DNA from: Acidobacteriota bacterium
GTDB taxonomy: Bacteria; Acidobacteriota; Vicinamibacteria; Fen-336
DNA length: 64,000 bases
Assembly (NCBI GenBank): GCA_011526565.1
Contig: WYBL01000116.1
Coordinates: 3,019 to 67,018, forward strand
Reading direction: 5' to 3'
Of the stretch, positions 1,693 through 39,043 are shown piece by piece. The position numbers and the translations under genes are program-made. The notes under the pieces were generated by a model, which ran no database searches, was not told the DNA's origin, and saw only the letters and a list, made by a program, of their open reading frames with translations. Numbering within the stretch: position 1 is the first letter of the stretch; each line of letters opens with the position of its first letter.

Positions 1693-1704
1693 AATCGGCG
1701 GATC

Positions 1705-3271: not shown

Positions 3272-3300
3272 TTGACACCACGATGCCGACGCCTTAACTT
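3272..3300 (+). promoter_or_regulatory. sigma70-like promoter candidate for the TonB receptor/ABC operon
   Basis: TTGACA (3272-3277), a 17-nt spacer, then TAACTT (3295-3300). It sits about 55 nt upstream of ATG 3354 in a locally AT-richer 158-bp intergenic region. Confidence 0.35.
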
Positions 3301-3353
3301 TTGCGCGAAAGTTGAAACGGGATTTCACTTTCGATATCAGAACGGAGATCTCG

Positions 3354-5744: not shown

Positions 5745-5762
5745 GCGAAGATCCGCGGCGCC

Positions 5763-6644: not shown

Positions 6645-6647
6645 AGC

Positions 6648-13182: not shown

Positions 13183-14011
13183 CGAGAGCCTCCGGATTCG
13201 CCCCGATGGCCTCCGCGGCCTTGCGGGACACCACGACCTGCATCTGGTCCACCTCGATGCGTTTCTTGCCCACCGTCTGCGGCTGCTGGGCCGCCTCGGT
13301 CGCGGCCTTCGCCATCGCCGCCGGCGGCGCGACCAGCGCCAGCGTCACGCCCTCGCGGGTCAGGCCCTCGAGGAACCCGACCGTCGGCTTCTTCGCCGCC
13401 TGGGACTGCTCGACGACGTACTCGACCGACTCGCGGCTGGTGGTGACCGGGTCCCCGATCGCCAGCAGCAGGGCGTCGACCTTGCCGAGCGCCGGCTTCA
13501 CGGAGCGGTACAGGTCTCCCGTCGAGTTCACGGTGACGGGCACCACCGCCACCCCGGCGGCCTCGCCGGCCTTGACGAAGCCCAGCGCGATCTCGCGGTT
13601 GCGGGCCGGCGTGAAGACGAAGCCGACCGCCTTCGCCTTCAGCGTGTCGCGCAGGTACTCGAACACCTTGTCGAGCCGCGGGTAGAAGGAGATGTAGGTG
13701 CCCGGGGTGCGGACCTGGGCGGGGTTGGCGACGCCCAGCGACACGACCGCGGCGCCTCGCGCCTCGGCCGCCACCTCGGCGGACTTGGGCCCGACGGCGA
13801 ACAGCACCCGCTGGCCCTTCGACTCGCGGGCGAGGCGAGAGGAGTCCGCGAGGTCGTCGCCGGTCAGCTCCACGACGCGGGCTTCGCCGGACAGCGCGCG
13901 CACGATGGCGTCGGTCAGGCCGAAACTCTCGCTGCGCGGCTTGAGCACCACCGAGCCGGTGGCGGGAGCCGCGAGCGAGGCGACCAGCAGGAGCCGGGCT
14001 GCAAGCGTCAC
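13169..14011 (-). CDS. periplasmic ABC_sub_bind (PF04392-like) substrate-binding protein
   Basis: Track ORF 13169..14155 trimmed to GTG 14011 (signal peptide VTLAARLLLVASLAAPATG), because the first 48 codons would cross the divergent promoter region. The family resemblance is from memory. Its 3' end overlaps the receptor gene start by 14 nt. Confidence 0.65.
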   Translation of the reverse strand: MTLAARLLLVASLAAPATGSVVLKPRSESFGLTDAIVRALSGEARVVELTGDDLADSSRLARESKGQRVLFAVGPKSAEVAAEARGAAVVSLGVANPAQVRTPGTYISFYPRLDKVFEYLRDTLKAKAVGFVFTPARNREIALGFVKAGEAAGVAVVPVTVNSTGDLYRSVKPALGKVDALLLAIGDPVTTSRESVEYVVEQSQAAKKPTVGFLEGLTREGVTLALVAPPAAMAKAATEAAQQPQTVGKKRIEVDQMQVVVSRKAAEAIGANPEALGAQR

Positions 14012-14105
14012 GTTCCGCGGAGGATAGCCGATTCCGGGGCGGACCCGGGCGGGCGTCGACGAGGCCCCGTCGGTGCTGTTACAGTGCGCGCGGTTTCCCA
14101 AGGGA

Positions 14106-15647
14106 ATGAAGCTGCTCCAGGACCTCTCGATCCGGCGCAAGCTGATCGCCATCATCCTGATGACGACCAGCGCGGTCTTCCTGCTGACCGCGGTCGCCTT
14201 CTTCAGCTACGACCTCGTCACCCTGCGCGGGCGCATGGTCGAAGAACTGAAGGTGATGGCGCGCCTGGTCGACGCCAACACCCAGGCCCTGCTCCTCTTC
14301 AACGAGCAGGACGAGGCGCGGGCCCGGCTGGAGTCGCTGGCCGCGCAGCCGCGGCTGCTCTCGGCCCGGCTGCTGACCCCCGACGGCAAGGTCCTCGCCG
14401 AATACGTGGCCAAGAGCCGCGAGGGACCGATGGGCGGGCCGCCCGAGGTGGAGACCGTGCGCGACCAGGAGCTGCACCGCTTCCTGCCCGGAACCCTGCT
14501 GCCGCGCCGCCTGGTCCTGTCGCGCCCGATCTACATCGGCCAGGACCAGTTCGCGGGCTGGGTCTACCTCGAGTCCGACACCCGCGAGCTGACGGCCCGG
14601 CTGTGGAACTACTTCGGCGTCACGGCGCTGATCATGCTGGCGGCCTCCGGCCTCGCGTTCCTGCTCTCCTCGCGGCTGCAGGGCCTGGTCTCGGAGCCGA
14701 TCCTTCACCTCGTGCAGGTGGCCGGCGAGGTCTCCCACAAGCAGGACTACCGGGTGCGGGCGACGCGGCGCGGCGACGACGAGGTCGGCAAGCTGGTCGA
14801 CGCCTTCAACGAGATGCTGGTCCAGATCGAGCGCCGCGACGAGGCCCTCGTCGAAGCGCGCGACCAGGCCTACGAGGTGAGCCGGACCAAGAGCGCGTTC
14901 CTGGCCAACATGAGCCACGAGTTGCGCACGCCGCTCAACGCCATCATCGGCTACACGGAGATGCTGCGCGAGGAGGCGGAAGAAGTCGGCCAGGAGGACT
15001 TCATCCCCGACCTGGTCAAGATCCACTCGGCCGGCAAGCACCTGCTGGGGCTGATCAACGACATCCTCGATCTGTCGAAGATCGAGGCCGGCAAGATGAC
15101 CGTGCACGCCGAGCTGTTCGACGTGGCGGGCGTCGTGCGCGACGTCGCCTCCACCGTGCAGCCGCTGTTCGACAAGAACGGCAACGTCCTGGTCGTCGAG
15201 ACCGGCGACGGGCTCGGCGACATGAGTTCCGACGTCACCCGCGTGCGCCAGGTGCTGCTCAACCTGCTGTCGAACGCCTCGAAGTTCACGTCGGCGGGCC
15301 GTGTCCACATGCGGGTCGGCAAGTTCGAGCGCGACGGCGCCGACTGGGTCCGCTTCGCGGTCCAGGACTCGGGCATCGGCATGACCCCGGAGCAGCTCGC
15401 CAAGCTGTTCCAGCCGTTCAGCCAGGCCGATTCCTCGACGACCCGCAAGTACGGCGGCACCGGGCTCGGCCTCGCGATCAGCCGCCGCTTCTGCCACATG
15501 ATGGGCGGCGACATCGCGGTGACCAGCGAGATCGGCAAGGGCTCGACCTTCACCGTCGAGTTGCCCGTGGCGATGCCCGAGCCCGCGGCCTCCTCCGCCG
15601 TGCGGGCGCGGGCCGCGGCCGAGCCGAGGCCCGCCACCGGGCGCTAG
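14106..15647 (+). CDS. sensor histidine kinase, CHASE8-like N-terminal sensor + HAMP
   Basis: ATG 14106 ([37 protein letters not shown]). Contains a single-TM sensor module resembling CHASE8, a second TM with HAMP ([13 protein letters not shown]), the H-box [21 protein letters not shown], and HATPase boxes [18 protein letters not shown] and [11 protein letters not shown]. Confidence 0.85.
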
Positions 15648-15654
15648 ACCGCCT

Positions 15655-18600
15655 TCAGCTCGTCACCGTCCGCAGCCGCTCGCACAGCACGCGGATCACG
15701 CCCCGCACGACCTCGATGCGGTCGGCCATCAGCTCGTACAGCGCCTCCTGCTCGAGCCGGAACAGGTGGGTGGCGCCGATCGCCAGCACCGACGCCGAGC
15801 GCGGCTCCGGGTCCAGCGCGGCCATCTCGCCGAAGATCTCGCGCGGGCCCAGCTCGCGCAGCACGCGGCCCTCGTTGACGACCCGCACCCCGCCTTCGAC
15901 GACGATGTAGAGCGCCGACCCCATGTCGCCCTTCTCGAACACGATGCCGCCGGGGCCGACGTCGACCTCCTCGAGCCGCGAGGCCACCTCGGCCAGGATC
16001 TCGTCGGGCGTCTCGCGGAAGATCGACACGCTCTTCAGGATGATCACCTTCTCGACCGTGGTCAGCATCGACGTCCCTCCCGACAGCTCCGCCTCGTAGC
16101 GCGCGATCAACCGCTCGGCCTCGTCGAGCGCGAGGCCGGTGGCCGGCTGGCGCCGCCGCGGCAGCCGGGTCAGCACCTCGCGCACGATCGTCTCGTCGGC
16201 TGGCACGCGGGGCGCCAGCGCCAGCAGCCCCGGCAGGTCCGCCTCGACCGCAGCCTGCAAGGCGCAGGCGCGCAGCCAGGGCGCCGTCGCCTCGTCCGTC
16301 ACCAGTCGCTCGAGCCGCGCGGCGAAGCCCAGGAGTTGATGCGGGAAGGTCGCGCCCAACTTGCGCAGTCGCTCGGCATGCGCCACGTCCTCGAGCAGCG
16401 GCACCACCAGCTTGCCGACGTCGGGGGTCACAAGGCTGTCGACCAGTTCCACCGCCTGGGCCCGCTTCTCCGGCCGGCGGCTCGACAGGTTGACGCGGGC
16501 GCGCAGCACCGGGTCGGGCGGGTAGACGAAACCGAGCAGGCAGAAGACCCGCTCGCGAGCCCTGCCGAACGCGTGGTCCAGCGTGCTCGCGAGCAGCGCG
16601 CCCCGGGCCTCCGCGCGCACGTCCTCGAGCATCGCCAGCACCACCACCGCGTCGCGCACCTCGCGGGCGATCCGTTCCTTCACCTGCGGCACGGCAGCCG
16701 GCGCCGCCTCGAAGCCTGTCGTCGCCAGCGAGGACAGCAGCGACAGTCGCACCTCGGGATCGTCGTGGTCGGCGCACAGCCACAGGAACTCGCGGGCGCG
16801 GGCCCCGCCGATCTGCCCGATCAGGCGCGCGACCCGGCGCTGCGCCGAGCGCCGCCGCTGCTCGTCGGCGGCGTGGAAGGCCTGCTCGAGGTCCGGGAGC
16901 ACGGCGGGGCCCGAGGCGACCAGCGCCGCCATCGCCGCGGAACGGTGGGCGGGCAGGTCGAGGCTGCGCAACAGCAGCGGCAGCAGCCGCGGGTTGCGGA
17001 GCCGACCCGCGGCCCACAACGCGGCGCGCCGCACGGCCGGCTCGCGGTCGGCGAGCAACGCGATCAGCGGCCGGTAGAAGCTGGCCTGGCCGACCTCGCC
17101 GATCACCCGGGCCGCCTCCTCGCGGGCGACCGGTTCTTCGGCGCGGGCCATCGTCACCAGCCGCTCGCCGGCGGCCAGCACGCCTTCGATGCCGCCGTGG
17201 CGCAGCAGCGCCACCAGCGCTCCGCACCGGGCCTCCACCTCGGGGGCGTCGAGCGAGAGCATCACCCGCTCGACGTCCTCGGGTTCGCCGATCGCAGCCA
17301 GCGCCCGCAACGCCGCGCCGCGCGCCGCCGCATCCTCCTCCGCCACCGCCGCCAGCCGCACGGCCCCGAGCGCCGCGCGCAGGCCCAGCCGTTCCACACG
17401 CAGCGAGGCATCGCGGCGCACCGCGGGGTCCTGGTGGCCGAGTTGAGCGACCACGGCGCTCTCCAGCGACGGGTGGCCCAGTTCCTCGAGCACGCCGAGG
17501 CAGTAGGCGACCTCCTCGGGGCGCGGCGAGTGCAGCCCCTTCTGCAGCACGGCCAGGCTGGAGGCGTCGAGCGCCAGCGAGACCCCCTGCAGGTGGCGGC
17601 TCTCCAGCGCGCGGCGCAGCTTCTCGGTGTAGGCGCCGCGGAGCGTGGCGGCGACGACGACCCAGCCGAGCACCAGCAGTCCGAGCAGCGCGCACAGCTC
17701 GACGGCGCCGAAGCCGAGGCCGCCGACCAGGGCCAGCAACGCAATGCCGGCGACGCCGCCGGCCAGCGGGCCGACGATGCCTTCCACCGCGGTCTGCGCC
17801 CGCACCCGGGCCGCGCCGGGCAGCGGCTGGTAGAGCAGCAGCACCGCGCTGCGGTCGATCGAGTCGCGCAGCGACTGGTCGACCAGCTTGGTCAGCGCCA
17901 GCAGCGCGAAGAGCAGGGCCGTCGGAGCCGCCAGCGCACCCGCGCCGACGACGCCGAGGCAGCCGAGCCCGATCGCCGCCGGCATGAACTGCAGCGCCCC
18001 GAGCCCGAAGCGGGCCAGCGCCCGACCCGCCAGCGCTCGAGCCAGCAGGGTGATGGCCGCGACGCTGCCGTTGAACACGCCGATGAACGCGGTCAGGTCG
18101 CGCTCGGCGGGGTAGCGCGCCGCAGCCAGCGCGTAGAAGGCGTTGTCGAGGAAGTAGTAGGCGACGTACGACAGCGCCACGAGGGCGAACAGCAGCCGCA
18201 GGTAGCCGCTGCGCAGCCCGCCGCCGGAGCGGGCGGCGTGGGAGCGGTCCTCCTCGCCGCCGGCCGCCTCGAGCAGCGGGAAGCGCCGCGTCACCACTCG
18301 CAGCAGGGCCAGGCACCCGACCACGGCGGCGGCCGAGACCCACAGCAGGTCGGCGGTGCCGAAGCGCGCCACGAACAGCGGCACCAGCAGGCCCGTGAGC
18401 GCCCCGGCGGCGAGCTCTCCGGCGCCGATCGGCCCGAACAGCCGCTTGCCCTGGCGCACGTTGAGCAGCGAGCCCGAGAGCCCCCAGAACTCGAGCGTCA
18501 GCAGCACGCCCTCGACCTCGGCCCACACCGGCAGGACCAGCGCGACGGGCACGACGTGTCCCATGCCCAGCGCGCCGCGCAGCGTCAGCAGCGTGACCAG

Positions 18601-18879
18601 CACGACCAGCAGGTCGACGGCCAGCAGCGTGCGCAGGCCGACGCGCGCGGACAGGCGCAGGCGCAGGAAGCCGGTGACCGGGATCGCGATCGCCGCCGCG
18701 ATGTAGACCCAGGGCAGGTGGCGGGCGTCGCTGTGCGACAGGAACAGCGCCATGCCCGCGGTGCTGGTCAGGTTGCGCGGCACGCCGATGCAGAAGGAGT
18801 GGAGCATCAGCAGCCAGACGAGGCGCTCCTCCTCCGGGCGCACGTCCAGCATCGTGGCGATCGCCCTGCGCAGCCCCAT
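15655..18879 (-). CDS. polytopic transporter-like domain (MFS / TLC ATP:ADP-antiporter-like) fused to HEAT repeats and a C-terminal cyclic-nucleotide-binding domain
   Basis: This is the only protein-like frame among three >1000-codon ORFs here. It has about 12 hydrophobic helices, central HEAT/PBS-lyase-like repeats (DPAVRRDA, EPAVRRAALWAAGRL), and a C-terminal cNMP domain (FRETPDEILAEV..FGEMAALDPEPRSASVLA). Confidence 0.8.
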   Translation of the reverse strand: MGLRRAIATMLDVRPEEERLVWLLMLHSFCIGVPRNLTSTAGMALFLSHSDARHLPWVYIAAAIAIPVTGFLRLRLSARVGLRTLLAVDLLVVLVTLLTLRGALGMGHVVPVALVLPVWAEVEGVLLTLEFWGLSGSLLNVRQGKRLFGPIGAGELAAGALTGLLVPLFVARFGTADLLWVSAAAVVGCLALLRVVTRRFPLLEAAGGEEDRSHAARSGGGLRSGYLRLLFALVALSYVAYYFLDNAFYALAAARYPAERDLTAFIGVFNGSVAAITLLARALAGRALARFGLGALQFMPAAIGLGCLGVVGAGALAAPTALLFALLALTKLVDQSLRDSIDRSAVLLLYQPLPGAARVRAQTAVEGIVGPLAGGVAGIALLALVGGLGFGAVELCALLGLLVLGWVVVAATLRGAYTEKLRRALESRHLQGVSLALDASSLAVLQKGLHSPRPEEVAYCLGVLEELGHPSLESAVVAQLGHQDPAVRRDASLRVERLGLRAALGAVRLAAVAEEDAAARGAALRALAAIGEPEDVERVMLSLDAPEVEARCGALVALLRHGGIEGVLAAGERLVTMARAEEPVAREEAARVIGEVGQASFYRPLIALLADREPAVRRAALWAAGRLRNPRLLPLLLRSLDLPAHRSAAMAALVASGPAVLPDLEQAFHAADEQRRRSAQRRVARLIGQIGGARAREFLWLCADHDDPEVRLSLLSSLATTGFEAAPAAVPQVKERIAREVRDAVVVLAMLEDVRAEARGALLASTLDHAFGRARERVFCLLGFVYPPDPVLRARVNLSSRRPEKRAQAVELVDSLVTPDVGKLVVPLLEDVAHAERLRKLGATFPHQLLGFAARLERLVTDEATAPWLRACALQAAVEADLPGLLALAPRVPADETIVREVLTRLPRRRQPATGLALDEAERLIARYEAELSGGTSMLTTVEKVIILKSVSIFRETPDEILAEVASRLEEVDVGPGGIVFEKGDMGSALYIVVEGGVRVVNEGRVLRELGPREIFGEMAALDPEPRSASVLAIGATHLFRLEQEALYELMADRIEVVRGVIRVLCERLRTVTS

Positions 18880-18921
18880 GGGAACCCGCGAACGATAACC
18901 GATCGCGGCCCGGCCCCTGCG

Positions 18922-26675: not shown

Positions 26676-26749
26676 TCCCCGACGCGCCGCGTCAGCGCTT
26701 CTGACGCACCGCGCGTGCTCGTGATGCCCTATCCTTCGCGGACCCCGCG

Positions 26750-28609
26750 ATGGACGAGAATCCCCACGCCTCCCGCCACCAGACCGAACTGCTGCTGCAC
26801 GGGCTGCGCGCCCTGTTCGGCGAGGTCGACGAGACGTTCCTCGCCGAACTGCGCCCGCGCCTCGACTGGATCGAGCTGGCCGGCGGCGAGACGCTGTTCC
26901 GCCAGGGCGAGCGCGCCGACGACATCTACTTCGTGATCAGCGGGCGCCTGCGCGCCCACGTCGCGGACGAAGAGGGCGAGCGCGTGCTCGGCGAGATCAT
27001 GCGCGGCGAGACGATCGGCGAGATGGCGATCTTCACCGGCGAGCCGCGCTCGGCGTCGATCACCGCCGTGCGCGACAGCGTGCTCGTCAGGCTGTCGCGT
27101 CCCGCGTTCGAGGCGTTGCTCGGCTCCCACCCGCTGTTGTCGATCAACGTGACGCGGCTGATCATCGACCGCCTGAAGCGCTCCAGCCACCCGCGCAACG
27201 CGGCGCGGCGCCCGGTCAACCTGTGCCTGCTGCCGATCACGCCTGGCGCCGACGGCGAGGAACTCGGCCGCGCGCTGGTCGGGCGGCTGGGGCGCTACGG
27301 CCGCGCCGTGCTGCTGACCAGCGCCGGCGTCAACGCCCAGCACGGGCCGGACGTCGCGCAGGCCGACAAGTCGCGGCCCGACGACTACCGCCGGCTGACC
27401 CGCTGGCTCGACGAGGTCGAGGCCCAGCACGACTTCCTGGTCTTCGTCGCCGACCGCGAGGCCAGCGAGTGGTCGCGCCGCTCGCTGCGCCACTCGGACG
27501 AGGTGCTGCTGCTGTGCGAGGCGGGTGCGGAGCCCGCCGTGCACCCGATGGAGCGCGACTTCCTGGAGGGCCCGGGCCGGGTCGGCGGCGCGAGCCAGAC
27601 GCTGGTGCTGCTCCACCCGCCGGGCACCACCTTCCCGCGCGGCACGAAGCGCTGGCTGGACCGCCGGCCCGTCGCCCGCCACTTCCACGTGCGCCCCCAC
27701 CTCGAGCGCGACGTCGCGCGGCTCGGCCGCATCCTCTCGGGCCACGCGATCGGCCTCGTCTTCAGCGGCGGCGGCGCCCGCGGCTTCGCGCATCTCGGCG
27801 TGCTGCGCGCGCTGGAGGAGCACGGCGTCGCGATCGACTACGTCGGCGGCACCAGCATCGGCGGGGTGATGGCCGCGCTGTGCGGCTTCGACCAGCCGGC
27901 GATGCAGGCGATCCACAACGCCCGCCGCGCCTTCAAGGCCGACCCCACGAGCGACTACAACATCGTGCCGATGATCTCGTTCATCCGCGGCCGCAAGCTG
28001 AAGCGGATCATCGAGCAGGCGGTCGAGGAGGCGGTCGGTTCGCCGTGCGACCTCGAGGACTGCTGGAAGACGGTGTTCTGCATCGCCACCAACTTCTCGC
28101 GCTCGACGGAGATGGTGCTGACCCGCGGCGACCTGGCGCGCCAGGTGCGGGCCTCGGTCTCGATCCCCGCCGCGCTGCCGCCGGTGATCCACGACGGCGA
28201 CCTGCTGGTCGACGGCGGCTGCTTCAACAACTTCCCCACCGACGTGATGGGCCGGCTCGGGGTCGGCAGGGTGATCGGAGTCGACCTGATCAAGGACGTG
28301 CGGCGGCGCCAGGAGATCGACGAGGTGCCCGGCAACTGGGACCTGCTGCGCGACAAGCTGCGCGGCCGCCGCCGCCGTTACCGGCTGCCGTCGCTGACCG
28401 CCGTGCTGCTGATGTCGACGATCCTGTACTCCAACTCGCGCCGCAAGCAGACGAAGCAGTACACCGACCTCTACTTCAACCCGGAGATGGGGCGGGTCGG
28501 CCTGCTCGAGTGGGGCCGCTTCGAGTCGATCGTCGAGCTCGGCTACCTCCACGCGAAGGAGGTGCTCGGCCGCATGACCGACGCGGAGCTCGCCCCCTAC
28601 CGCGACTGA
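26750..28609 (+). CDS. cyclic-nucleotide-binding domain + patatin-like phospholipase (NTE-like)
   Basis: N-terminal cNMP domain (LFRQGERADDIYFVISGRLR..FGEMAIFTGEPRSASITA). Patatin domain with GLVFSGGGARGFAHLGVLRAL, GTSIGG (GxSxG) and LVDGG. Confidence 0.85.
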   Translation: MDENPHASRHQTELLLHGLRALFGEVDETFLAELRPRLDWIELAGGETLFRQGERADDIYFVISGRLRAHVADEEGERVLGEIMRGETIGEMAIFTGEPRSASITAVRDSVLVRLSRPAFEALLGSHPLLSINVTRLIIDRLKRSSHPRNAARRPVNLCLLPITPGADGEELGRALVGRLGRYGRAVLLTSAGVNAQHGPDVAQADKSRPDDYRRLTRWLDEVEAQHDFLVFVADREASEWSRRSLRHSDEVLLLCEAGAEPAVHPMERDFLEGPGRVGGASQTLVLLHPPGTTFPRGTKRWLDRRPVARHFHVRPHLERDVARLGRILSGHAIGLVFSGGGARGFAHLGVLRALEEHGVAIDYVGGTSIGGVMAALCGFDQPAMQAIHNARRAFKADPTSDYNIVPMISFIRGRKLKRIIEQAVEEAVGSPCDLEDCWKTVFCIATNFSRSTEMVLTRGDLARQVRASVSIPAALPPVIHDGDLLVDGGCFNNFPTDVMGRLGVGRVIGVDLIKDVRRRQEIDEVPGNWDLLRDKLRGRRRRYRLPSLTAVLLMSTILYSNSRRKQTKQYTDLYFNPEMGRVGLLEWGRFESIVELGYLHAKEVLGRMTDAELAPYRD

Positions 28610-31306: not shown

Positions 31307-32200
31307 ATGACGTCATTGCCGTTCCGGCGCCCGAGCGCCGCGCTCCTCCTGCTCCTGCTGACCTCGTGCGGCGGGGGCGGTTCTTCTCCGGCCGCACCCA
31401 GCACTCCTCCGACGGGCAACACCACTCCGACCCCCACGCCGGCGCCGACCGCGACGCCGACTCCCACCCCGGGCGGCGGCACCGCGGCCGCGAGCTGCAC
31501 CGCCCTCGGCTACGGCGTCTGGGACGCCCCCTGCTCGCGCAGCGGCGGTCAGTTCACGGAAGTCGTGATGTCCGCCATCAACCAGCTCCAGCGGGAGAAG
31601 CCGGGCCTGTTCGACACCACGCAGTTCGCGGGGGGCAACCCCGAGCAGTGGCGGGTGCTCGACGCGTCCGCCTACTACCAGGGCGTGATGGAGGTCCTCG
31701 GCCGCAACGGCTACTGCGCGAACCTGCTGGCCACCACGATCTCGGTCAAGACCTCCAACTCCTTCTCGGAGGACTTCGACGTGATGCTCAGCTCGGGCCA
31801 CGTCCGGCGAGGCGAGGCGGCCTACCGCAACACCTGCCAGCCCGCCAACTTCCCCGCCAACCCGGTCGAGATGATCAACCGCGTCCGGGTCGGCTTCTTC
31901 GAGATCCGCTGCCCCGACGGGCGCACGCCGCCCCGCAACGGCGAGAACACGCTGCCGATCGGCTGCCTCGGCACCGTCACGGCGACGCCCAAGGACAGGG
32001 ACGACCACGACGTGCCGGCCTCCGTCCACGGCCCCGACATCGAGTGGGAGCTGCTCCAGGACGGCTTCATCGCCGACATCGGCGACGACCCGGTCAGCAA
32101 GTTCAACATGTTCGTCTCGGCCCACAACCCCGGAAGCTTCGAGCTGTGCGCCACCGTGCAGACGATCCGCGGCTGCATGAGGGGCACGGTCATCGAGTAG
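31307..32200 (+). CDS. lipoprotein of unknown function
   Basis: ATG 31307 with AGGAG upstream. Lipobox LLLLLLTSCGG, a Thr/Pro-rich linker, then a Cys-containing domain of about 230 aa that I cannot assign. Confidence 0.65.
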   Translation: MTSLPFRRPSAALLLLLLTSCGGGGSSPAAPSTPPTGNTTPTPTPAPTATPTPTPGGGTAAASCTALGYGVWDAPCSRSGGQFTEVVMSAINQLQREKPGLFDTTQFAGGNPEQWRVLDASAYYQGVMEVLGRNGYCANLLATTISVKTSNSFSEDFDVMLSSGHVRRGEAAYRNTCQPANFPANPVEMINRVRVGFFEIRCPDGRTPPRNGENTLPIGCLGTVTATPKDRDDHDVPASVHGPDIEWELLQDGFIADIGDDPVSKFNMFVSAHNPGSFELCATVQTIRGCMRGTVIE

Positions 32201-32209
32201 GAGGAGATC

Positions 32210-33325
32210 ATGGTTCTCGGCCTGTTCGGGGGAACCGACGTCGGGGACCTGATCGCGAAGAAGAAGTACGCGCGGGCCATCGAGGTCCTCGGCGAGCAGC
32301 TTCGCCGGGGCACCTCGGACCCGCGCGTCCGCAACCAGCTCGCGGACGTGCTGATCATGGCCGGCCGCGAGAAGGAAGCGGTGCCGGTGCTGATCGAGCT
32401 GGCGGACGAGTACGCCCGCGTCAACCAGGCCCCGCGCGCGATCGCGCTGCTCAAGAAGATCGAGCGCATCGACCCCGGCCGTCGCGACGTCGACCAGAAG
32501 CTGGCCTCGCTGATCCGCGACAAGAAGCCGAAGGCCAAGGCCCCGGCGGGCGGCGGCTGGCAGCCCTACGAGGAAGGCGGCCTGAGCACCGGCGGCTCGG
32601 TGTTCGACGCCTCCCACTTCGAGCCCTCGCCGTACACGGGCCAGGAGTCGGTCGCCGCGGCGAAGAAGGCGTCGTGGGAACCCGACATCGGGACCCGGAA
32701 GGAGGAGGCGCCCGGCGCGCCTGCGCCCCCCGACTTCCCTGCGATCCAGCTCCCGCCCGAGCCCGACGAGCCGCCGATGTTCTCGCAGGAGATGTTCCGC
32801 GGCCAGGTGCTCGACGTGATCCAGCAGGTGCTGCAGTCGCCTGCCGTGCCACCCCCGGCGCCACTCGCGACCGCGCCGGCCGTGACGGCCGAAGGCGAAG
32901 AGCCGCTGATCGAGGTCGAGCCGGAGCCGGAACTCGTGACGAGCCCGCTGTTCGGCGACATGTCGGAGGACGAGCTGATCGCGTTCATGCGCGGCCTGCG
33001 GCTGCTGAGCTTCGAGCCCGGCGACGTGATCCTGACCGAGGGCCACCCGGGCGACTCGCTGTTCGTGGTCTCGAGCGGCCTGGTCAAGGCCTTCGTCAAG
33101 GACCAGGGAGCCACCGGCCAGCGCCTCGCCCGCACGATGAAGGACGGCGACTTCTTCGGCGAGATCTCGATCCTGTCGGGCAAGCCGCGCACCGCGACGG
33201 TCACCGCGGCGACCCGCGTCGAGCTGCTGGAGATGGACCGCCCGACGCTCGACGAGATGCTGAAGCAGTACCCGCGCATCATGCAGGTCCTGCAGGACTT
33301 CTACGTCGCCCGCGCGACGGCCTGA
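32210..33325 (+). CDS. TPR-like helical module + low-complexity linker + C-terminal cyclic-nucleotide-binding domain
   Basis: N-terminus KKKYARAIEVLGEQL..ADVLIMAGREKEAVPVLIELADEY..AIALLKKIERIDPGRRDV. cNMP domain PLFGDMSEDELIAF..FGEISILSGKPRTATVTA. It is a paralogue of the modules in 34752..37451. Confidence 0.8.
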   Translation: MVLGLFGGTDVGDLIAKKKYARAIEVLGEQLRRGTSDPRVRNQLADVLIMAGREKEAVPVLIELADEYARVNQAPRAIALLKKIERIDPGRRDVDQKLASLIRDKKPKAKAPAGGGWQPYEEGGLSTGGSVFDASHFEPSPYTGQESVAAAKKASWEPDIGTRKEEAPGAPAPPDFPAIQLPPEPDEPPMFSQEMFRGQVLDVIQQVLQSPAVPPPAPLATAPAVTAEGEEPLIEVEPEPELVTSPLFGDMSEDELIAFMRGLRLLSFEPGDVILTEGHPGDSLFVVSSGLVKAFVKDQGATGQRLARTMKDGDFFGEISILSGKPRTATVTAATRVELLEMDRPTLDEMLKQYPRIMQVLQDFYVARATA

Positions 33326-33363
33326 AGCGGGGCCTCTCGCGAGGCGAATCGAAGGGGACTGCC

Positions 33364-34158
33364 ATGATCCGGGATACGCTCCGCCGTCTCCGGCGACGCT
33401 TCGGCCGTGATCAGGAGCGCGAGGCGGAGAACATGGCTCGCGCCTACGTCGCCGAGCACCCGCGACTCGCTGAAGTCCTGGCCCACGCGGATCGGGTGTC
33501 GGGTTCGACCGGCGTCCAGCTCGCGGACTCGGTGTTCCTCCACAAGGCCGTGCTGCGGCTGCGCCCGACCACGGTCCTCGAATGCGGCACCGGGCGGTCG
33601 ACCTTCGTACTGGCTCAGGCCATGGCCGAAGCGGCGCAGCCGGGGACCCGTCCGCGCCTGGTGTCGATGGAACACGACCGGGCGTGGTTCGAGGCGGCGC
33701 TTCGTGCGTTCCCGAAGGACGAGTTCCCGTTCGTCGAGATCGTCCACTCGCCCCAGGCGCTCCACGGGTACTCGTTCGTTCGCGGCACGGTGTACAGCAG
33801 CGTGCCGACGGCGCCCTATGACCTGGTCTTCGTCGACGGCCCGGGGCAAGAAATGAGCAGCGTGCATCCGCACACGATGTGCAATCTCGATTTCATCCGC
33901 CTCGTGGAGCAATCCGACAGGCCCGTGCGGGCGATCATCGACAACCGAAAGCACACGGTGCTCGCATACACGGTGATCCTTGGCCGCGCCAAGGTGCGCT
34001 TCTTCCCCGGCGGCCGAGGGCAGGGGAGCCTCGGCATCGTGGCACCGGTAACCCGCAAGGACCTCCTGCTGGCGGACAAGATGGCCATGCGCAAGACGCT
34101 GTTTCCGGAGTTCGTGCGCATCGGAGGCGACACGCCGCTGGCCTTCCTGGAAGGCTGA
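33364..34158 (+). CDS. class I SAM-dependent methyltransferase-like protein
   Basis: These are the last 264 codons of ORF 31198..34158, starting at ATG 33364. Motif I-like VLECGTGRSTFVLAQA, and DLVFVDGP. Confidence 0.6.
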   Translation: MIRDTLRRLRRRFGRDQEREAENMARAYVAEHPRLAEVLAHADRVSGSTGVQLADSVFLHKAVLRLRPTTVLECGTGRSTFVLAQAMAEAAQPGTRPRLVSMEHDRAWFEAALRAFPKDEFPFVEIVHSPQALHGYSFVRGTVYSSVPTAPYDLVFVDGPGQEMSSVHPHTMCNLDFIRLVEQSDRPVRAIIDNRKHTVLAYTVILGRAKVRFFPGGRGQGSLGIVAPVTRKDLLLADKMAMRKTLFPEFVRIGGDTPLAFLEG

Positions 34159-34203
34159 CGTTCGTCAGGAAGCTGGGGCCTCGACCGGCGCCCGGCGGCG
34201 TGG

Positions 34204-34755
34204 TCAGCGCGCGGGCGGGGACGGGGGCGCGGGGCAGGCGGACACCCCGCGCTCCGCGCGGCGGGCCTCCAGCGCCTGCCCGATGCGGGCGAGCTGCTCC
34301 GCGCCCAGGTGCCGCTGCAACGTCTCGTAGAAGGCGCGCTCCTCGTAGCGGACGTGGTCGTCGAGCAGCGGGCCGAGTTCGGCGCACACCGGCCGGAGGT
34401 CGTCGCCGCGAACGAGCGCCGTGGCGAGCGACGCGGCCAGGGCCTCCATCTCGCGGTGCTCGTCCGCGATCCGCCGCACGCCCTCGGGGTCGAAGCCGCG
34501 CGCCGCGGGCAGCAGCTCCTGCTCCTCGTCGGCGAAGTGGCCGCGCATCTCCGCCTCCCAGGTCGCGAGGAACGCGCGGGCCGCGGCGACGACGGCCGGG
34601 TCGCCCGCGGGCCGCTGCGCGGCGCGCTTGAGGTCGAGGGCGCGGACCAGCACGCCATGGTGCTCGCGGGAGAGGGCGACGAGGGCGGGATCGCGGCGCA
34701 GGCCGCGGGTGCCGGGAGCCAGCGCGGGCACGACCCGCGGCGGGCGTTCGCTCAC
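34204..34755 (-). CDS. hemerythrin HHE cation-binding domain protein
   Basis: GTG 34755 overlaps the stop of the upstream gene (GTGA). Contains REHHGVL, HFADEEQELLP, DEHREME and DDHVRYEERAFY. Confidence 0.7.
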   Translation of the reverse strand: MSERPPRVVPALAPGTRGLRRDPALVALSREHHGVLVRALDLKRAAQRPAGDPAVVAAARAFLATWEAEMRGHFADEEQELLPAARGFDPEGVRRIADEHREMEALAASLATALVRGDDLRPVCAELGPLLDDHVRYEERAFYETLQRHLGAEQLARIGQALEARRAERGVSACPAPPSPPAR

Positions 34756-37451
34756 GCCGGGGGCTGGCCGCGCAGCTGCGCAGCCTCGGCGCTCTGCGCG
34801 CGCTCGCGGGCGAACGCTTCCAGCACCTCGCGCATGCGCGGGTGGCTCGCGGTACACGCCTCGAGCGCCTCGCGGGTCAGCTCCAGCAGCTCGCCCCGGG
34901 TCGAGGCGATCACGGTCGCGCGCCGCGGGCCACCCGAGAGCGCGGCCATCTCGCCGAAGAAGGCGCCGTCGCGCAGCACCGCCAGGCGCGCGTCGTGGCC
35001 GCGCGGGGTGCGCACGAACACCTTGACCACGCCGGTGGCGAGGATGAACAGGCTGCCGCCGGGCTCGCCTTCGCTGATCAGGATCTCGCCCGGCTCGATC
35101 GGCACCAGCCGGAGCTGCTGGACGAGCGCCAGCAGCTCTTCTTCGGTGAAGCCCTCGAACAGCGGGCTGCCGCGCAGGCCGCTGTCGTAGGAGCGGGCGG
35201 CCGCCGGCGCCGCCTGCGCGCCCAGCGTCGGCGTGCGCTGCACCTGGTCGCGCACGACGTCGACGAGCCAGTCGGCGAAGCTCGCCTCGGTGCGCGGGCC
35301 GCGCGCGGGCGCGGGGGCGACGGGTGGCGGCGGGGCGGGCACGGGCGGGGCCGGCTCGGCGGCGGCGGTCGCCCGCGGCCGCTTGAGCGGCGCGAGGTTG
35401 ACCTCCTCGACGTAGCGCCGCTGCAGTCCCTCGATCTTCTTGAGGATCGCGATCGCCTTCTCGGGGAACCCGCCGCGCACGAGCTCGTCGGCGAGGCCCA
35501 CCAGCACCGCGACCGCGTCCTCCTCCTTGCCCGCTCGCAGCAGCGCGTCGGCCAGCCGCAACTGCATCTTGGGGTCCCACTGGCTGGCGCCGAAGTGGGC
35601 GAGCAGCACCTCGGTGGCACGCCGCCGGGTGTTCTCCGCGTCGAGCGCGACCGCGCGCACCGCGGCGTTGGCGGGCGAACTGGCGCGCGCGATGTAGGCC
35701 GCCTCCAGCCGGTCGCGCACCCGCGGGTGCACGGCGGCCATCGCGTCGAGCGTGGGCTTCGACAGCTCGAGGCACTCGACCCAGTCGGCGGCGACGACGG
35801 TCGCGGAACGCGGGCGGCCGGAGAGCGCGGAGACCTCGCCGAACCAGTCGCCCTCGAGGAGGCGCGCGACCTCGACGTTGCGGCCGACCGGGTTGCGCAC
35901 GTAGACCCGCAGCTCGCCGGTCGTGAGCAGGAACAGGCTGTTGCCCGGCGCGCCCTCGCTGACCAGCACGTCGCCCGGGTCCCACGTGCGCAGCGTCAGG
36001 CCTTCGACGACGGCCATCAGCTCGTCCTGCTTGAGGTCGCCGAACAGGGGCGTGGCCAGCAGGCGCCGGCTCATCTCCAGGTAGTGGCGAGCGTCGACAC
36101 GAACGGGGTGCGCCTCTTCGTCGAGCGCGTCGATCTCGGGCTCGACGGGTTTCGCGACCGGTTCGCCGGGCCGCTTCAGCACGTCCTGGACGAGGTCGAG
36201 GAGCTGGTCGTGGAACTCCGCCTCGTCGAGGCCCTCCGAGCCCTCGGGCTCGGGCAGCAGCTCGATCAGCGACTCGGGAGGCGCTTCGTCTTCGGCCTCC
36301 GGCTCCACTTCCGGGGAGGGCTCGACTTCTGCCGCCACCGGCGCCGCGGCGTCCACCGGTTGCGCTTGCTCCACCTGCAGCGCCGGCGCCGCGGGCTCGG
36401 GCGCTGCCGCGGCAATCGGCTCAGGCTCCACCGTGGGCTCGGCGGCAGGCTCGGTCTCGGGCTCGGTCTCGGGCTCGGTGTCGACCTCGGGCTCGGCTTC
36501 CGGCTCCGGCTCGATGCGCGGCTCCTCATCGCCCTCGCGGCTCAGGAACCCGCGCAGCGCGCCCTTGAAGCGATCGACGCCGGACTCCTCGGCGTCGGGG
36601 CTCGCGGCTTCGGGCGCGGGCGCGTCCGCGGCGGCCAGCGCGGGCTCGGGTGCTTCGGCCGGGACCGGCTCGGGTGCGGAGGGCGCCGCGGGCTCCGCGG
36701 GCTTCTCGTCGTCGACGAGCGACGACAGGAAGCGGCGGAACACGGAGCGCAGGCGACCGCCCGCGGGCTTCGCCGGCTCGGCCGGCGCCTCCGGCTCCGG
36801 CACCGGCTCGGCCTCGGGTTCGGGCTCAGGCACGGGCTCGGCCTCGGGTTCCTCGGCCCGAGCTTCGGCGGCCTGCTGCGCGGGCGACGGCGGGACCTCG
36901 GCCGCGGCTGGCGCAGGTGGCGTGGGCACCGGAACCGCGGCCGCCTCGTCGGGCGGCAGCGGCCCGCCGATCTCGGGCGGCAGCGCCGTGAAGTCGGGCA
37001 CTGCCATCCGCGACAGCGTCTCGTCGCCGGGCGCCTCGCCGATCTCCTCGATCCCGAACAGGGGCGCCGGGGCGGGTCGCGGCGTCGGGGTCGGCGTCGA
37101 GCTGCCCGCAGCCGACTGGCGCGCCTGCTCCTCGACCAGCGCGGCCATCCGCTCCGCGACGTCGGCGCGCCCCGGGTCGACCTTCTCGACGCGCTTGAGG
37201 ATCGCGATCGCCTTGGCGACGAAGCCGTCGCGGCGCAGCTCGTCGACCAGCGCCAGCAGGATCGGGCATGCCTCGTTCGGGCGGCCCGCCTGGATCAGCA
37301 GGTCCGCGAGCTGGAGGCGCACCTTCTCCGAGGGCGCCTTGCCCTCGAGCTGCTCGCGCAGCGTCTCGATCGCCTTCGCCCGCCGCTTGCGGGCGAGGAT
37401 CTCGGAGACGTTCGACTCGATCGGCGAGTTGAGCCAGTCGATCGGCGGCAT
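34752..37451 (-). CDS. large signalling protein: 2 x (TPR-like module + cyclic-nucleotide-binding domain) separated by a long acidic Pro/Glu/Ala linker
   Basis: Start taken at ATG 37451 (MPPIDWLNSPIE); ATG 37514 is an alternative. Modules: AKAIETLREQL..ADLLIQAGRPNEACPILLALVDEL..AIAILKRVEKVDPGRADV, and a second copy LADALLRAGKEEDAVAVLVGLADEL..AIAILKKIEGL. cNMP domains: PLFGDLKQDEL..FGEVSALSGRPRSATVVA and PLFEGFTEEEL..FGEMAALSGGPRRATVIA. Confidence 0.8.
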   Translation of the reverse strand: MPPIDWLNSPIESNVSEILARKRRAKAIETLREQLEGKAPSEKVRLQLADLLIQAGRPNEACPILLALVDELRRDGFVAKAIAILKRVEKVDPGRADVAERMAALVEEQARQSAAGSSTPTPTPRPAPAPLFGIEEIGEAPGDETLSRMAVPDFTALPPEIGGPLPPDEAAAVPVPTPPAPAAAEVPPSPAQQAAEARAEEPEAEPVPEPEPEAEPVPEPEAPAEPAKPAGGRLRSVFRRFLSSLVDDEKPAEPAAPSAPEPVPAEAPEPALAAADAPAPEAASPDAEESGVDRFKGALRGFLSREGDEEPRIEPEPEAEPEVDTEPETEPETEPAAEPTVEPEPIAAAAPEPAAPALQVEQAQPVDAAAPVAAEVEPSPEVEPEAEDEAPPESLIELLPEPEGSEGLDEAEFHDQLLDLVQDVLKRPGEPVAKPVEPEIDALDEEAHPVRVDARHYLEMSRRLLATPLFGDLKQDELMAVVEGLTLRTWDPGDVLVSEGAPGNSLFLLTTGELRVYVRNPVGRNVEVARLLEGDWFGEVSALSGRPRSATVVAADWVECLELSKPTLDAMAAVHPRVRDRLEAAYIARASSPANAAVRAVALDAENTRRRATEVLLAHFGASQWDPKMQLRLADALLRAGKEEDAVAVLVGLADELVRGGFPEKAIAILKKIEGLQRRYVEEVNLAPLKRPRATAAAEPAPPVPAPPPPVAPAPARGPRTEASFADWLVDVVRDQVQRTPTLGAQAAPAAARSYDSGLRGSPLFEGFTEEELLALVQQLRLVPIEPGEILISEGEPGGSLFILATGVVKVFVRTPRGHDARLAVLRDGAFFGEMAALSGGPRRATVIASTRGELLELTREALEACTASHPRMREVLEAFARERAQSAEAAQLRGQPPA
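36448..36483. repeat. 12-bp x3 microsatellite (GGCTCGGTCTCG) within the acidic-linker coding region
   Basis: Units at 36448-36459, 36460-36471 and 36472-36483, the last with 1 mismatch. They encode ..TEPETEPETEP.. on the minus strand. A second 17-bp direct repeat GGCTCGGCCTCGGGTTC occurs twice near 36800-36850. Confidence 0.8.
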
Positions 37452-37524
37452 CGTGGTAACCCGTTGAAGGTGAGCGGCCGAGGCGAGGCTATGCGCCACG
37501 CGGCCGGGGGTCAACCGGCCAAAC

Positions 37525-37540
37525 TTGACTTTTTAGTCCA
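37525..37540. promoter_or_regulatory. imperfect palindrome TTGACTTTTTAGTCCA overlapping a -35-like TTGACT upstream of sufB; candidate Rrf2-regulator site
   Basis: GACT-N4-AGTC arms at 37527-37538 lie in the AT-richest part of the 152-bp region upstream of sufB. An Rrf2 regulator is encoded at the end of the operon. E. coli IscR type-1 sites have GACT-N5-AGTC (from memory), so the spacing differs by 1. Confidence 0.3.
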
Positions 37541-37603
37541 GATTGCCGATTCTTGGGTCTGCGCCCTCCCCGAGCGCGGCATCGGAAGGACTTCCCGCCC
37601 GCC

Positions 37604-39043
<1,440 letters not shown>

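Follow-up and report, generated by a model that had tools for sequence, protein, structure and literature searches.

What do the two convergent genes at positions 32210–37451 of this 64-kb stretch of DNA from a soil acidobacterium of the class Vicinamibacteria (hereafter the window, meaning the whole stretch analysed) encode, and what signal might their products read? Gene A (32210–33325, + strand) encodes a 371-aa protein with a single unit, in which an N-terminal TPR module (N-module) is followed by a linker and a cNMP-binding (CNB) domain; the Pfam matches are TPR_19/TPR_14 and cNMP_binding. Gene B (34752–37451, – strand) encodes 899 aa from an ATG that matches the MPxDW motif, the common start of B orthologues, and Pfam, BLASTP and AF2 place two such units in it, giving an N-C-N-C order. 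These results uphold the coordinates and the architecture of one unit in A and two in B that the initial annotation had assigned from the sequence. Its statement that it knew of no described function for this module family also stands, as the literature searched contained no characterised member.

The N-module of A (residues 9–111, 32234..32542, + strand) comprises five helices, or ~2.5 TPR repeats. Pfam matches residues 14–100 with TPR_19 at 33.4 bits (cut-off 25) and TPR_14 at 26.5 bits (cut-off 23.5), and the AF2 model reaches pLDDT >90 over residues 10–103. The linker carries conserved islands at residues 124–158 (32579..32683, + strand), defined by the alignment of A homologues and by pLDDT, with the family consensus GYEPxG..FSAEHF and ERIAAARxASWxP. 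Within them A154 and W156 are invariant and P158 is nearly so; the islands reach pLDDT 67–81, and the rest of the linker is disordered. Further downstream lies a conserved linker helix, FRGQVLDVIQQVLQ (32768..32836, + strand), whose equivalent is found in both B units. The cNMP-binding domain (residues 245–371, 32942..33322, + strand) contains the phosphate-binding cassette FFGEISILSGKPRTATV and is matched by Pfam at residues 266–354 with E = 1.3e-21 (pLDDT ~88 for residues 250–370). R308 lies on its beta-5, 10 residues N-terminal of the cassette Glu.

All features of B lie on the – strand. N-module 1 (residues 13–115, 37107..37415) exceeds the Pfam cut-offs of TPR_20, TPR_19 and TPR_14 over residues 19–105; N-module 2 (residues 597–695, 35367..35663) is homologous to the other two modules and scores under the Pfam TPR cut-offs. 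The first linker is acidic, consists of 22% P, 20% A and 20% E and is encoded by DNA tandem repeats with periods of 6, 12, 24 and 30 nt (36448..36999, detected by TRF). Its length differs between close relatives, whose proteins measure 899, 908, 912 and 915 aa. AF2 predicts helices at residues 234–244 and 292–304 within otherwise disordered surroundings, corresponding to two basic amphipathic segments, GRLRSVFRRFLSSLV (36717..36758; muH 0.58, net charge +4, ranking with the most amphipathic 14-mers in the protein) and DRFKGALRGFLSRE (36540..36581; muH 0.40, net charge +2). In the alignment of B orthologues, the first has the family consensus RIRGALxRFLASLP, and F302 is conserved in ≥90%. Unit 1 continues with the conserved linker helix EFHDQLLDLVQDVLKR (36174..36230; L418 and D419 invariant, pLDDT ~72) and cNMP-binding domain 1 (35676..36056, cassette WFGEVSALSGRPRSATV), which passes into N-module 2 without a linker through a highly conserved junction, RASSPxxAAVRAV. 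Unit 2 holds the equivalent helix SFADWLVDVVRDQVQR (35235..35294; W728 and R734 invariant) and cNMP-binding domain 2 (34791..35174, cassette FFGEMAALSGGPRRATV), in which an unusual Arg occupies the position held by Thr/Ser in most family members. Pfam cNMP_binding covers two stretches of B with E = 1.4e-44. For both proteins, the TPR and CNB domains are modelled with confidence by AF2, and the linkers that join them are disordered apart from isolated helices.

The proposed homology of the three N-modules is well supported. BLASTP aligns A9–111 with B13–115 (44% identity, E = 1e-23), A14–103 with B603–691 (44%, E = 4e-12) and A172–371 with B390–592 (40%, E = 4e-43). Pairwise, the N-modules share 30–45 identical residues in 70–103 aligned columns, and their Smith-Waterman scores of 230, 140 and 134 correspond to z = 30.5, 19.5 and 18.3 against a shuffled background with a mean of ~31 and an sd of ~6, well above generic TPR background. 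Each N-module is indeed followed by a cNMP domain, and all three domains bear a canonical phosphate-binding cassette. The accompanying claim of duplication holds for the gene duplication and for the fusion or duplication that produced the two-unit protein; the event appears to be neither recent nor local. NJ trees built without bootstrap group A, B-N1 and B-N2 into one clade each, with members from distant Vicinamibacteria, and N-C-N-C orthologues are only 41–50% identical; these comparisons suggest that the two-unit design of B is old and has been conserved. The linkers described as of low complexity are P/E/A-rich and disordered but not featureless, since short motifs are conserved family-wide and persist in family alignments at 41–50% overall identity.

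A and B are members of a multi-paralogue family found mostly in Vicinamibacteria and other Acidobacteriota. A has 961 homologues, mostly of 330–410 aa and ~50% identity; few of them carry a source name, and those few are Vicinamibacteria. The family is widespread, with several copies per MAG, and the NJ trees divide it into no fewer than five or six clades of paralogues. The cassette FFGE..LSG.PR[TS]ATV occurs in all three cNMP domains and throughout the family. The closest solved relatives of the CNB profile are PKG and PKA-R, followed by the channels SthK, MloK1 and HCN; in a fold search, CRP and HCN CNB domains lead, with Mtb CRP at the top. Neither Pfam nor NCBIfam reveals an HTH, another output domain or an output enzyme in A or B, and neither protein has a TM segment (maximum Kyte-Doolittle 19-residue hydropathy 1.0–1.3).

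The surroundings of A and B offer little guidance, for the neighbourhoods of their orthologues are not conserved, and this variation means that no partner can be named from them. A does lie, as first annotated, between a lipoprotein-like and a methyltransferase-like gene. The former (31307..32200, + strand) has a signal peptide with an LLTSC lipobox and no significant match in Pfam or NCBIfam. It stops 9 nt upstream of A, with which it is probably co-transcribed, and a homologue directly precedes A in L001, L008, L089 and L090 and in none of the other A loci. The Methyltransf_24-like gene (33364..34158, + strand; a weak Pfam match of 27.3 bits versus a cut-off of 26.3) has a GC3 of 0.86 compared with ~0.95 in the neighbouring genes. 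Its presumed conserved linkage did not materialise: besides the window, only the near-identical L090 carries the gene, which L089, L001 and L008 lack, and we rejected it as a part of the system in favour of a lineage-specific insertion. Beyond B, sufB (37604..39043, + strand) opens a divergent suf Fe-S cluster operon across an intergenic gap of ~150 bp, an adjacency conserved in L001, L008, L089 and L090.

A tie to cNMP signalling, independent of domain naming, is provided by paralogues elsewhere. In L034–L040 and in the contig-end fragments L025 and L031, family members share an operon with a class III cyclase, in the order CNB protein, N-C protein, receiver and HisKA/receiver/class III cyclase; an adjacent cyclase is also present in L016 and L030. 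In one MAG, DASTLK01, an A orthologue (L009) occurs together with one of the paralogues linked to a cyclase (L030). Judged by eye, the operon cyclase shares ~60% identity with the catalytic domain of Cya2 (PDB 2W01, E = 3.5e-65). All 11 loci with a complete cyclase catalytic core retain GTIDEFIGD including its Glu, and nine of the 11 retain KYGVVG. An E488K mutation turns the guanylate cyclase Cya2 into an adenylate cyclase (PMC5995499). The paralogue-linked enzyme is thus predicted to make cGMP, and this Cya2-like type with the GC-type Glu is the only one found beside N-C family members, apart from a separate match in L030 with a YDLWG motif, which lies at a distance of ~3 kb and in the opposite orientation. 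The window itself contains no cyclase or phosphodiesterase, so the ligand of A and B is extrapolated from these paralogues.

Which nucleotide A and B would bind can be judged from their cassettes. In A-type proteins, position –10 from the cassette Glu is Arg in 105 of 113 cases, and the residue that follows the cassette Arg is kept as Thr or Ser. HMMER pairs these positions with RT...PRTA in the CNB-D of Plasmodium PKG. In that domain the guanine is hydrogen-bonded by the beta-5 Arg (PMC8931422), and in human PKG the PBC Thr is cGMP-specific (PMC3765617). Judged from these residues, cGMP is a serious candidate ligand for A-type proteins. The PKG-like Arg at –10 is missing from both CNB domains of B, and in this lineage Arg also replaces Thr/Ser in domain 2, so that the ligand selectivity of B may differ or its binding may be altered. 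That A and B are instead ordinary cAMP receptors, with the cGMP lead holding only for the cyclase-linked clade, is a reading that we regard as quite plausible, if short of an even chance. cAMP is by far the commonest ligand of bacterial CNB domains, cassette Thr/Ser (RSA/RTA) is shared with the cAMP binders CRP, MloK1 and HCN, and both the missing Arg in B and the lack of a cyclase in the window fit this reading; the conservation of both guanine-contact positions in A-type proteins and the Cya2-like character of the adjacent cyclases argue against it. The atypical Arg of B domain 2 could even signal degenerate cNMP domains and hence nucleotide-independent TPR scaffolds, which is very improbable given that Gly-Glu and Arg-x-Ala are invariant or nearly so over hundreds of homologues, and that truly degenerate relatives (L045 C1 and the L087 protein) look quite unlike the A and B domains.

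The gene downstream of B invites another reading, in which B and a translationally coupled hemerythrin form a dedicated sensor integrating O2/NO/iron with a cyclic nucleotide and A is a paralogous partner. The GTG start of this 183-aa hemerythrin/HHE-domain gene (34204..34755, – strand; PF01814, E = 4e-14) does overlap the TGA stop of B, as first noted, and the 4-nt GTGA overlap implies co-translation. The overlap is also annotated in L001 and L089, with the arrangement retained in L090; the HHE-type His/Glu motif pattern is intact, and divergence from the suf operon suits an iron/oxidant theme. Conservation of the linkage, however, fails beyond a narrow lineage. Among the B loci compared, those with hemerythrin behind B are limited to the window, L090, L089 and L001; in the last three, the B proteins are 64–93% identical to that of the window (best BLASTP segment), and it is absent next to the five more distant B orthologues (41–52% identity) in L002, L004, L005, L008 and the P0157 locus. 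In L008, the stop codons of A and B are 3 nt apart, therefore leaving no room for the gene. Of three hemerythrin homologues compared, two at 44–54% identity (L086 and L088) are not flanked by a CNB gene. The one in L087, 58% identical, follows a CNB-domain gene, but we rejected the product as a family member: it is unrelated, with no N-module and a degenerate cassette. Adjacency is in any case weak evidence where CNB genes are very common (four within 22 kb in the window), and a suf-adjacent hemerythrin could act in Fe-S repair alone. The link is local, confined to one sub-lineage, and the hemerythrin and methyltransferase cistrons are recent lineage-specific additions at a variable spot between the convergent A and B; we consider a dedicated hemerythrin-coupled sensor unlikely. 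Equally doubtful is the additional reading that B attaches peripherally to the membrane or acts as a polar scaffold, targeted to the inner membrane by its basic linker helices in the manner of MinD/FtsA. The two predicted helices have muH and charge values near those computed for the FtsA and MinD helices, and RIRGALxRFLASLP is conserved in B orthologues, but the resemblance is purely physicochemical, such helices could equally be protein-binding motifs, and A does not have the motif.

We therefore return to soluble cytoplasmic cNMP (possibly cGMP) receptor-adaptors that work by protein-protein contacts, which is probably what A and B are. Each unit combines a 2.5-repeat TPR module, presumably for docking, a P/E/A-rich disordered linker in which short motifs are conserved, an amphipathic helix among them, and a PKA/PKG-type cNMP-binding domain whose ligand would be cAMP or cGMP. 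With neither a catalytic nor a DNA-binding domain and no membrane segment, they would deliver their output by protein-protein interaction. Nucleotide binding would close the cassette and the C-terminal helix of the cNMP domain, the contacts of this domain with the TPR module and with the conserved helix or motifs of the linker would change, and a partner would thereby be captured or released; in B, no linker separates cNMP domain 1 from TPR module 2. Such a switch would be formally analogous to that of the PKA regulatory subunit, with its docking domain, disordered linker bearing an inhibitory motif, and CNB domains.

Our comparison with known systems reveals partial likenesses. As in CRP/FNR, A and B have an N-terminal-type CNB beta-barrel and a C-terminal helix, but they end at the CNB C-helix without a helix-turn-helix, and NCBIfam gives only partial CRP and FtrB matches over the CNB, all far under the equivalog cut-offs. 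Of the solved structures, YbbN/CnoX chaperedoxin and PA4667 (short TPR modules of the TPR_19/TPR_20 type) match the N-module profile best, but at most ~27 bits per single stretch amounts to generic repeat similarity, with neither thioredoxin nor a common context. Bacterial cGMP signalling is exemplified by Rhodospirillum centenum CgrA and Xanthomonas XC_0249. If the Cya2-like cyclase makes cGMP, the CNB protein would be an effector like these, with TPR in place of HTH or GGDEF; unlike Synechocystis Cya2, the operon cyclase, which sits outside the window, is receiver-regulated (HisKA-like plus receiver) and not CHASE2-linked. In the eukaryotic TRIP8b–HCN pair, a TPR domain works with a short helical peptide to engage the CNB and antagonise cAMP. 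The same elements are combined here, but on one chain, whereas TRIP8b acts in trans on the channel, and the sequence relationship is limited to domain classes. By sequence, the closest solved relatives of the CNB domains are PKA-R and the regulatory half of PKG. A and B differ from these in being bacterial and restricted to few phyla, in having an N-terminal TPR instead of the D/D four-helix bundle, and, for B, in a separate TPR for each CNB instead of a contiguous A/B CNB tandem; neither a kinase partner nor an RRxS/A pseudosubstrate emerged for them. Common to all is an N-terminal helical docking domain followed by a long disordered linker with a short functional motif and then one or more CNB domains, in proteins without an activity of their own.

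Reading frames with a GC3 of ~0.95 were used to define the genes of the locus, in a window whose G+C content is 68–76%. A lipoprotein-like gene (31307–32200, +; called from reading frame and GC3) is followed by A (371 aa; 32210–33325, +), in which Pfam detects TPR_19 and TPR_14 together with one cNMP_binding domain, and by a weak Methyltransf_24 gene (33364–34158, +; called from reading frame and Pfam). On the opposite strand, B (899 aa; 34752–37451, −) carries TPR_20, TPR_19 and TPR_14 and two cNMP_binding domains, and its stop codon overlaps the start of a hemerythrin gene (34204–34755, −; Pfam PF01814) in the sequence GTGA, as the initial annotation had read it. The sufBCDS operon, defined by its reading frames, starts at 37604 (+) and is divergent from B. 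Scans of the locus for Rfam families and for consensus promoters and terminators returned nothing over background.

The N-terminal module of A is 44% identical to both modules of B by BLASTP (E 1e-23 for module 1 and 4e-12 for module 2), and the linker helix and cyclic nucleotide-binding (CNB) domain of A match unit 1 of B at 40% identity over 207 residues (E 4e-43). Local alignments between the modules of A and B score 18–30 standard deviations over shuffled controls, and the N-module profile reaches a top single-stretch score of only ~27 bits on solved TPR proteins; the modules therefore resemble one another far more closely than generic TPR background would explain. The proposal that three homologous N-modules are each followed by a cNMP domain is thus confirmed by BLASTP, Pfam and shuffle controls. 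Among solved structures, the N-module finds nothing beyond generic TPR, PPR and designed-repeat matches.

Pfam assigns the N-module of A to TPR_19 (33.4 bits; gathering cut-off 25) and TPR_14 (26.5; cut-off 23.5), and the first module of B (N1) to TPR_20 (28.9; cut-off 25), TPR_19 (26.7; cut-off 25) and TPR_14 (25.6; cut-off 23.5). The second module (N2) alone falls under its Pfam cut-off (TPR_6, 15.6; cut-off 26.3), despite its homology to N1 and to the module of A (E 4e-12). In the AlphaFold models of A and B, which drew on 60 and 20 aligned sequences, respectively, residues 20–103 of A form five consecutive helices with pLDDT >90, preceded by a short helix at 11–16, and the same helix pattern is found in B at 15–116 and 605–684. 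The N-modules are thus modelled as the stacked antiparallel helix pairs of TPR proteins.

The linkers are predicted to be disordered in both proteins (pLDDT <50 by AlphaFold) and contain conserved segments. The A-family linker has two conserved islands, GYEPxG..FSAEHF and ERIAAARxASWxP, in which A154 and W156 are invariant, and a conserved helix, QILDVIQxAL. In the B family, a conserved FGIEE motif follows module 1, the helix LLDLVEDVL precedes the first CNB domain (CNB1) as the counterpart of the A helix, and WLVDVVRD precedes the second (CNB2). The junction between CNB1 and module 2 has no linker and is near-invariant (RASSPEAAAVRAV); a continuous rigid helix from CNB1 into the second TPR module is unsupported, as the AlphaFold model breaks there with low confidence at residues 600–603. 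The B linker consists of 22% Pro, 20% Ala and 20% Glu and is encoded by tandem DNA repeats with periods of 6, 12, 24 and 30 nt (36448–36999, −). Because these repeats encode the linker, its length differs among close relatives of B (899–915 aa in total), which suggests ongoing slippage. Within this otherwise strongly acidic linker lie two basic amphipathic helices (36717–36758 and 36540–36581, −) that are conserved across B orthologues, the family having one or two such helices of the type RIRGALxRFLASLP. Their computed hydrophobic moment (muH) is up to 0.58 with a charge of +4, comparable to values computed for what we take to be the membrane-targeting helices of FtsA and MinD; more speculatively, they may add membrane or partner tethering.

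Pfam PF00027 matches A at 76.8 bits and B at 150.4 bits over two stretches (cut-off 27.5). The phosphate-binding cassettes, FFGEISILSGKPRTATV in A, WFGEVSALSGRPRSATV in the first unit of B and FFGEMAALSGGPRRATV in the second, contain the Gly-Glu that contacts ribose and the Arg-x-Ala that contacts phosphate in all three CNB domains, and the corresponding residues of A (G317, E318, R327 and A329) are invariant in 60 homologues. The barrels are modelled with pLDDT 82–94 and superpose by Foldseek on the CNB domains of CRP, HCN, PKG and MloK1 (E ~1e-10; rmsd mostly 2–4 Å over ~125 residues), so the models have the eight-stranded β-barrel and flanking helices of this fold. By sequence, the nearest solved relatives are PKG and the PKA regulatory subunit (PKA-R), followed by the channels SthK, MloK1 and HCN; CRP was added by the fold search. 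Both A and B are predicted to be ligand-competent.

Which nucleotide these domains bind may differ between the two proteins. Of 113 single-unit proteins, 105 have an Arg 10 residues ahead of the cassette Glu and a Thr or Ser next to the cassette Arg on its C-terminal side, and HMMER aligns ..RLARTMKDGDFFGE..PRTATV of A with ..RL-RTLGKNDYFGE..PRTASI of the CNB-D domain of Plasmodium PKG. The β5 Arg of PKG (R473, equivalent to human R297) hydrogen-bonds guanine (PMC8931422), and T317, the Thr of the PKG cassette, makes the classical contact specific to cGMP (PMC3765617). Neither CNB domain of B has an Arg at the −10 position. In addition, CNB2 of B (34791–35174, −) reads PRRATV, with Arg after the cassette Arg, both in the window and in L001, a locus from another genome, whereas most orthologues have Ser or Thr; judged from these residues, this is a lineage-specific alteration of the ligand pocket, and the lineage concerned coincides with the one that gained the hemerythrin gene. 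These differences hint that A and B diverge in nucleotide selectivity. Against a cGMP assignment, Thr or Ser at the cassette position also occurs in cAMP binders.

The 64-kb window contains no nucleotide cyclase or phosphodiesterase. Elsewhere the TPR-linker-CNB family is genomically tied to nucleotide cyclases. Neighbour clustering over 45 family loci revealed an operon that recurs around a further clade of paralogues of ~400 aa (L034–L040, plus the contig-end fragments L025 and L031), whose full order is a CNB-only protein, an N–C protein (one module and one CNB domain), a receiver, and a HisKA-like/receiver/class III cyclase (L036, 3369–7589, with the cyclase gene at 5742–7589). Genes for a porin, a PBP-like protein and a HAMP/PAS hybrid kinase lie upstream of this operon and run the other way. 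The same cyclase adjoins an N–C gene in L016 and L030 and a CNB match in L028 and L029, contig-end fragments on which no N-module was detected; of the operon, L013 and L049 have just the CNB-only gene at its upstream end. The cyclase scores 92.3 bits against PF00211, and its catalytic domain matches PDB 2W01 at E 3.5e-65. This structure is the Synechocystis guanylate cyclase Cya2, which E488K converts into an adenylate cyclase (PMC5995499). All 11 complete cyclases have GTIDEFIGD with the Glu, and 9 have KYGVVG as in Cya2. Since they match Cya2 and retain the substrate-specifying Glu, the cyclases beside these paralogues, which lie outside the window, are predicted to be guanylate cyclases. 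Together with the PKG-like residues of A-type proteins, the cyclase-linked paralogues make cGMP a serious candidate ligand of A-type proteins.

The family is large. A has 961 detectable homologues, the best of which are 330–410 aa long and ~50% identical over the full length; where named, they are called 'cyclic nucleotide-binding domain-containing protein [Vicinamibacteria bacterium]'. Full-length orthologues of B with the order N-C-N-C (700–1040 aa, 41–64% identity) are found in Vicinamibacteria, a major soil class of Acidobacteriota, and the window's own proteins are present in NCBI Vicinamibacteria metagenome-assembled genomes (MAGs). In a scan with one genome per species, the module-plus-CNB architecture occurs mostly in MAGs of Vicinamibacteria and other Acidobacteriota. 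Short-linker N–C forms occur in Holophagales and Thermoanaerobaculum MAGs, and N-C-C forms in a few MAGs labelled Proteobacteria, delta proteobacterium or Zetaproteobacteria and in one unclassified bacterium. The family comprises hundreds of 50%-identity clusters, with several copies per genome in Vicinamibacteria, and several MAGs carry at least three members on separate contigs. Among 1.84 billion representative proteins, a profile of the N-module only gave 10,114 matches at E <= 1e-3 and 190 at E <= 1e-30; the strong matches with one or two stretches are family members, and the rest are giant multi-TPR proteins with 13–31 matches each. Such giants (P0190–P0192, P0200, P0201 and others; ~2400–3800 aa, with 15–31 matches to the 100-residue profile) appear, from their sequences, to consist almost wholly of a similar 2.5-TPR unit repeated in tandem.

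At least five or six paralogue clades make up the family, and A and B represent two of them. In neighbour-joining trees without bootstrap, modules of the A, B-N1 and B-N2 types are each monophyletic across distant lineages, the one feature of the trees that is relied on here; the two CNB domains of B are sisters. The two-unit protein thus seems to be of long standing and conserved, not the product of a recent local duplication.

The initial annotation had also proposed conserved linkage to hemerythrin and methyltransferase genes; this holds solely within a narrow lineage. The order hom/lipoprotein/A, convergent with B/sufB, is common to the window and to L090, L089, L001 and L008, beyond which A and B orthologues share no conserved neighbours. 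The interval between A and B is variable: it holds both genes in the window and L090 (99.6% identical DNA over the interval), hemerythrin only in L089 and L001, and nothing in L008, where the stop codons of A and B are 3 nt apart. The B orthologues at L002, L004, L005 and the P0157 locus, which are more distant, have unrelated surroundings and no hemerythrin gene beside them. The assignment of the gene downstream of B to the hemerythrin/HHE cation-binding domain is well supported by its sequence (PF01814, 53.5 bits; cut-off 25.3), with the motifs REHH, HFADEE, EHREME and DHVRYEE in its translation; its counterpart in L090, uncalled in that record, is 99.5% identical by tblastn. From the hemerythrin side, two of three loci with homologues (44–58% identity) have no CNB neighbour, and at the third (L087) the homologue follows a degenerate tandem-CNB gene, itself preceded by a HEAT/TLC gene related to one in the window; having no N-module and a degenerate cassette, the L087 CNB gene is not an N–C family member. 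Tested from both sides, hemerythrin linkage is rejected as a family trait, although the B–hemerythrin operon may be functional in this lineage. The Methyltransf_24-like gene is present in the window and L090 only; its GC3 is 0.86 against ~0.95 in its neighbours. Its low GC3 and its absence at the same position in L089, L001 and L008 make it look like a recent insertion, and its linkage is likewise rejected. In L090 it has an apparent frameshift near its 3' end or an extended-frame call. Both neighbours are best regarded as local accidents of a variable intergenic spot rather than leads to pursue.

Some 150 bp (37452–37603) separate B from the divergent suf operon for Fe-S assembly, which is complete (sufB, C, D and S), an adjacency kept in L001, L008, L089 and L090; in L001 the operon also has NifU, an FeS_assembly_P protein and Rrf2. 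The hemerythrin could serve Fe-S or iron metabolism instead of being connected with B. In the wider window, a gene 4 kb from A and B (26705–28606, +; syntenic in L001) encodes a cNMP_binding domain, an NTE P-loop and a patatin phospholipase, and another (15658–18921, −) encodes a 1088-aa protein whose N-terminus faintly resembles a TLC transporter and which also has HEAT repeats and, at its C-terminus, a cNMP-binding domain. Four CNB genes lie within ~22 kb. There are also a GAF histidine kinase (1693–3192, +), a CHASE8/HAMP histidine kinase (14028–15644, +) and two TonB-dependent receptors (3276–5741, +, and 11050–13344, −).

CNB domains are among the best-understood ligand switches; to our knowledge, nearly all the bacterial examples studied feed a DNA-binding domain, a channel or an enzyme. 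Pfam and NCBIfam reveal no HTH or enzyme domain in A or B, and hydropathy no transmembrane segment; their sole possible output is protein–protein contact through the TPR module and the conserved motifs of the disordered linker. We infer that A and B would act as nucleotide-gated adaptors or regulatory subunits, in which the CNB C-helix and lid would move when nucleotide binds, altering contacts with the linker helix of each unit and the adjacent TPR and so causing partner proteins to be bound or released. A broader scheme would have a two-component phosphorelay activate the receiver-coupled, Cya2-like guanylate cyclase; A-type proteins would read cGMP as PKA-R-like regulatory subunits or scaffolds, with partners sequestered or released through TPR and linker motifs. 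B, whose CNB domains do not have the guanine-contacting Arg, would read a different nucleotide and, in this lineage, couple the signal to the hemerythrin as an O2/NO/iron sensor beside suf. Taken as a whole, we consider this network unlikely. The linkage of paralogues to cyclases and the PKG-like residues of A-type proteins nonetheless make the family a concrete candidate for a bacterial cGMP effector, of which we know very few.

A literature search on TPR plus cNMP in Acidobacteria or bacteria found no paper describing this architecture, and database names for family members are generic only: the parts are well known, and their combination, its expansion in Vicinamibacteria and the possible connection to cGMP are not described. 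The top NCBIfam matches, the Family 2B encapsulin shell protein and the Pat acetyltransferase, were rejected, as they cover the CNB insert only (45–94 bits against 400–460). A and B are not members of the CRP/FNR, TRIP8b–HCN or PKA-R families. In contrast to CRP/FNR proteins, both lack the C-terminal Crp-type HTH and end at the CNB C-helix; no HTH family was found in Pfam or NCBIfam, which rules out membership among these transcription factors, and the CRP and FtrB equivalog models score 12–58 bits against NCBIfam cut-offs of 211–300. TRIP8b–HCN offers a precedent for a TPR protein and a helical peptide acting on a CNB domain. By comparison with PKA-R, the N-terminal D/D domain is replaced by TPR, and the CNB domains of B are separated by TPR and linker instead of forming a contiguous CNB-A/CNB-B pair; no inhibitor/pseudosubstrate site was identified in A or B. 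Profile matches to PKA-R centre on the CNB region and extend into the linker only at low confidence. An output through protein–protein contact nevertheless resembles the logic of the eukaryotic PKA-R, which may be the closest functional analogue of A and B, by a likeness in possible working rather than by membership.
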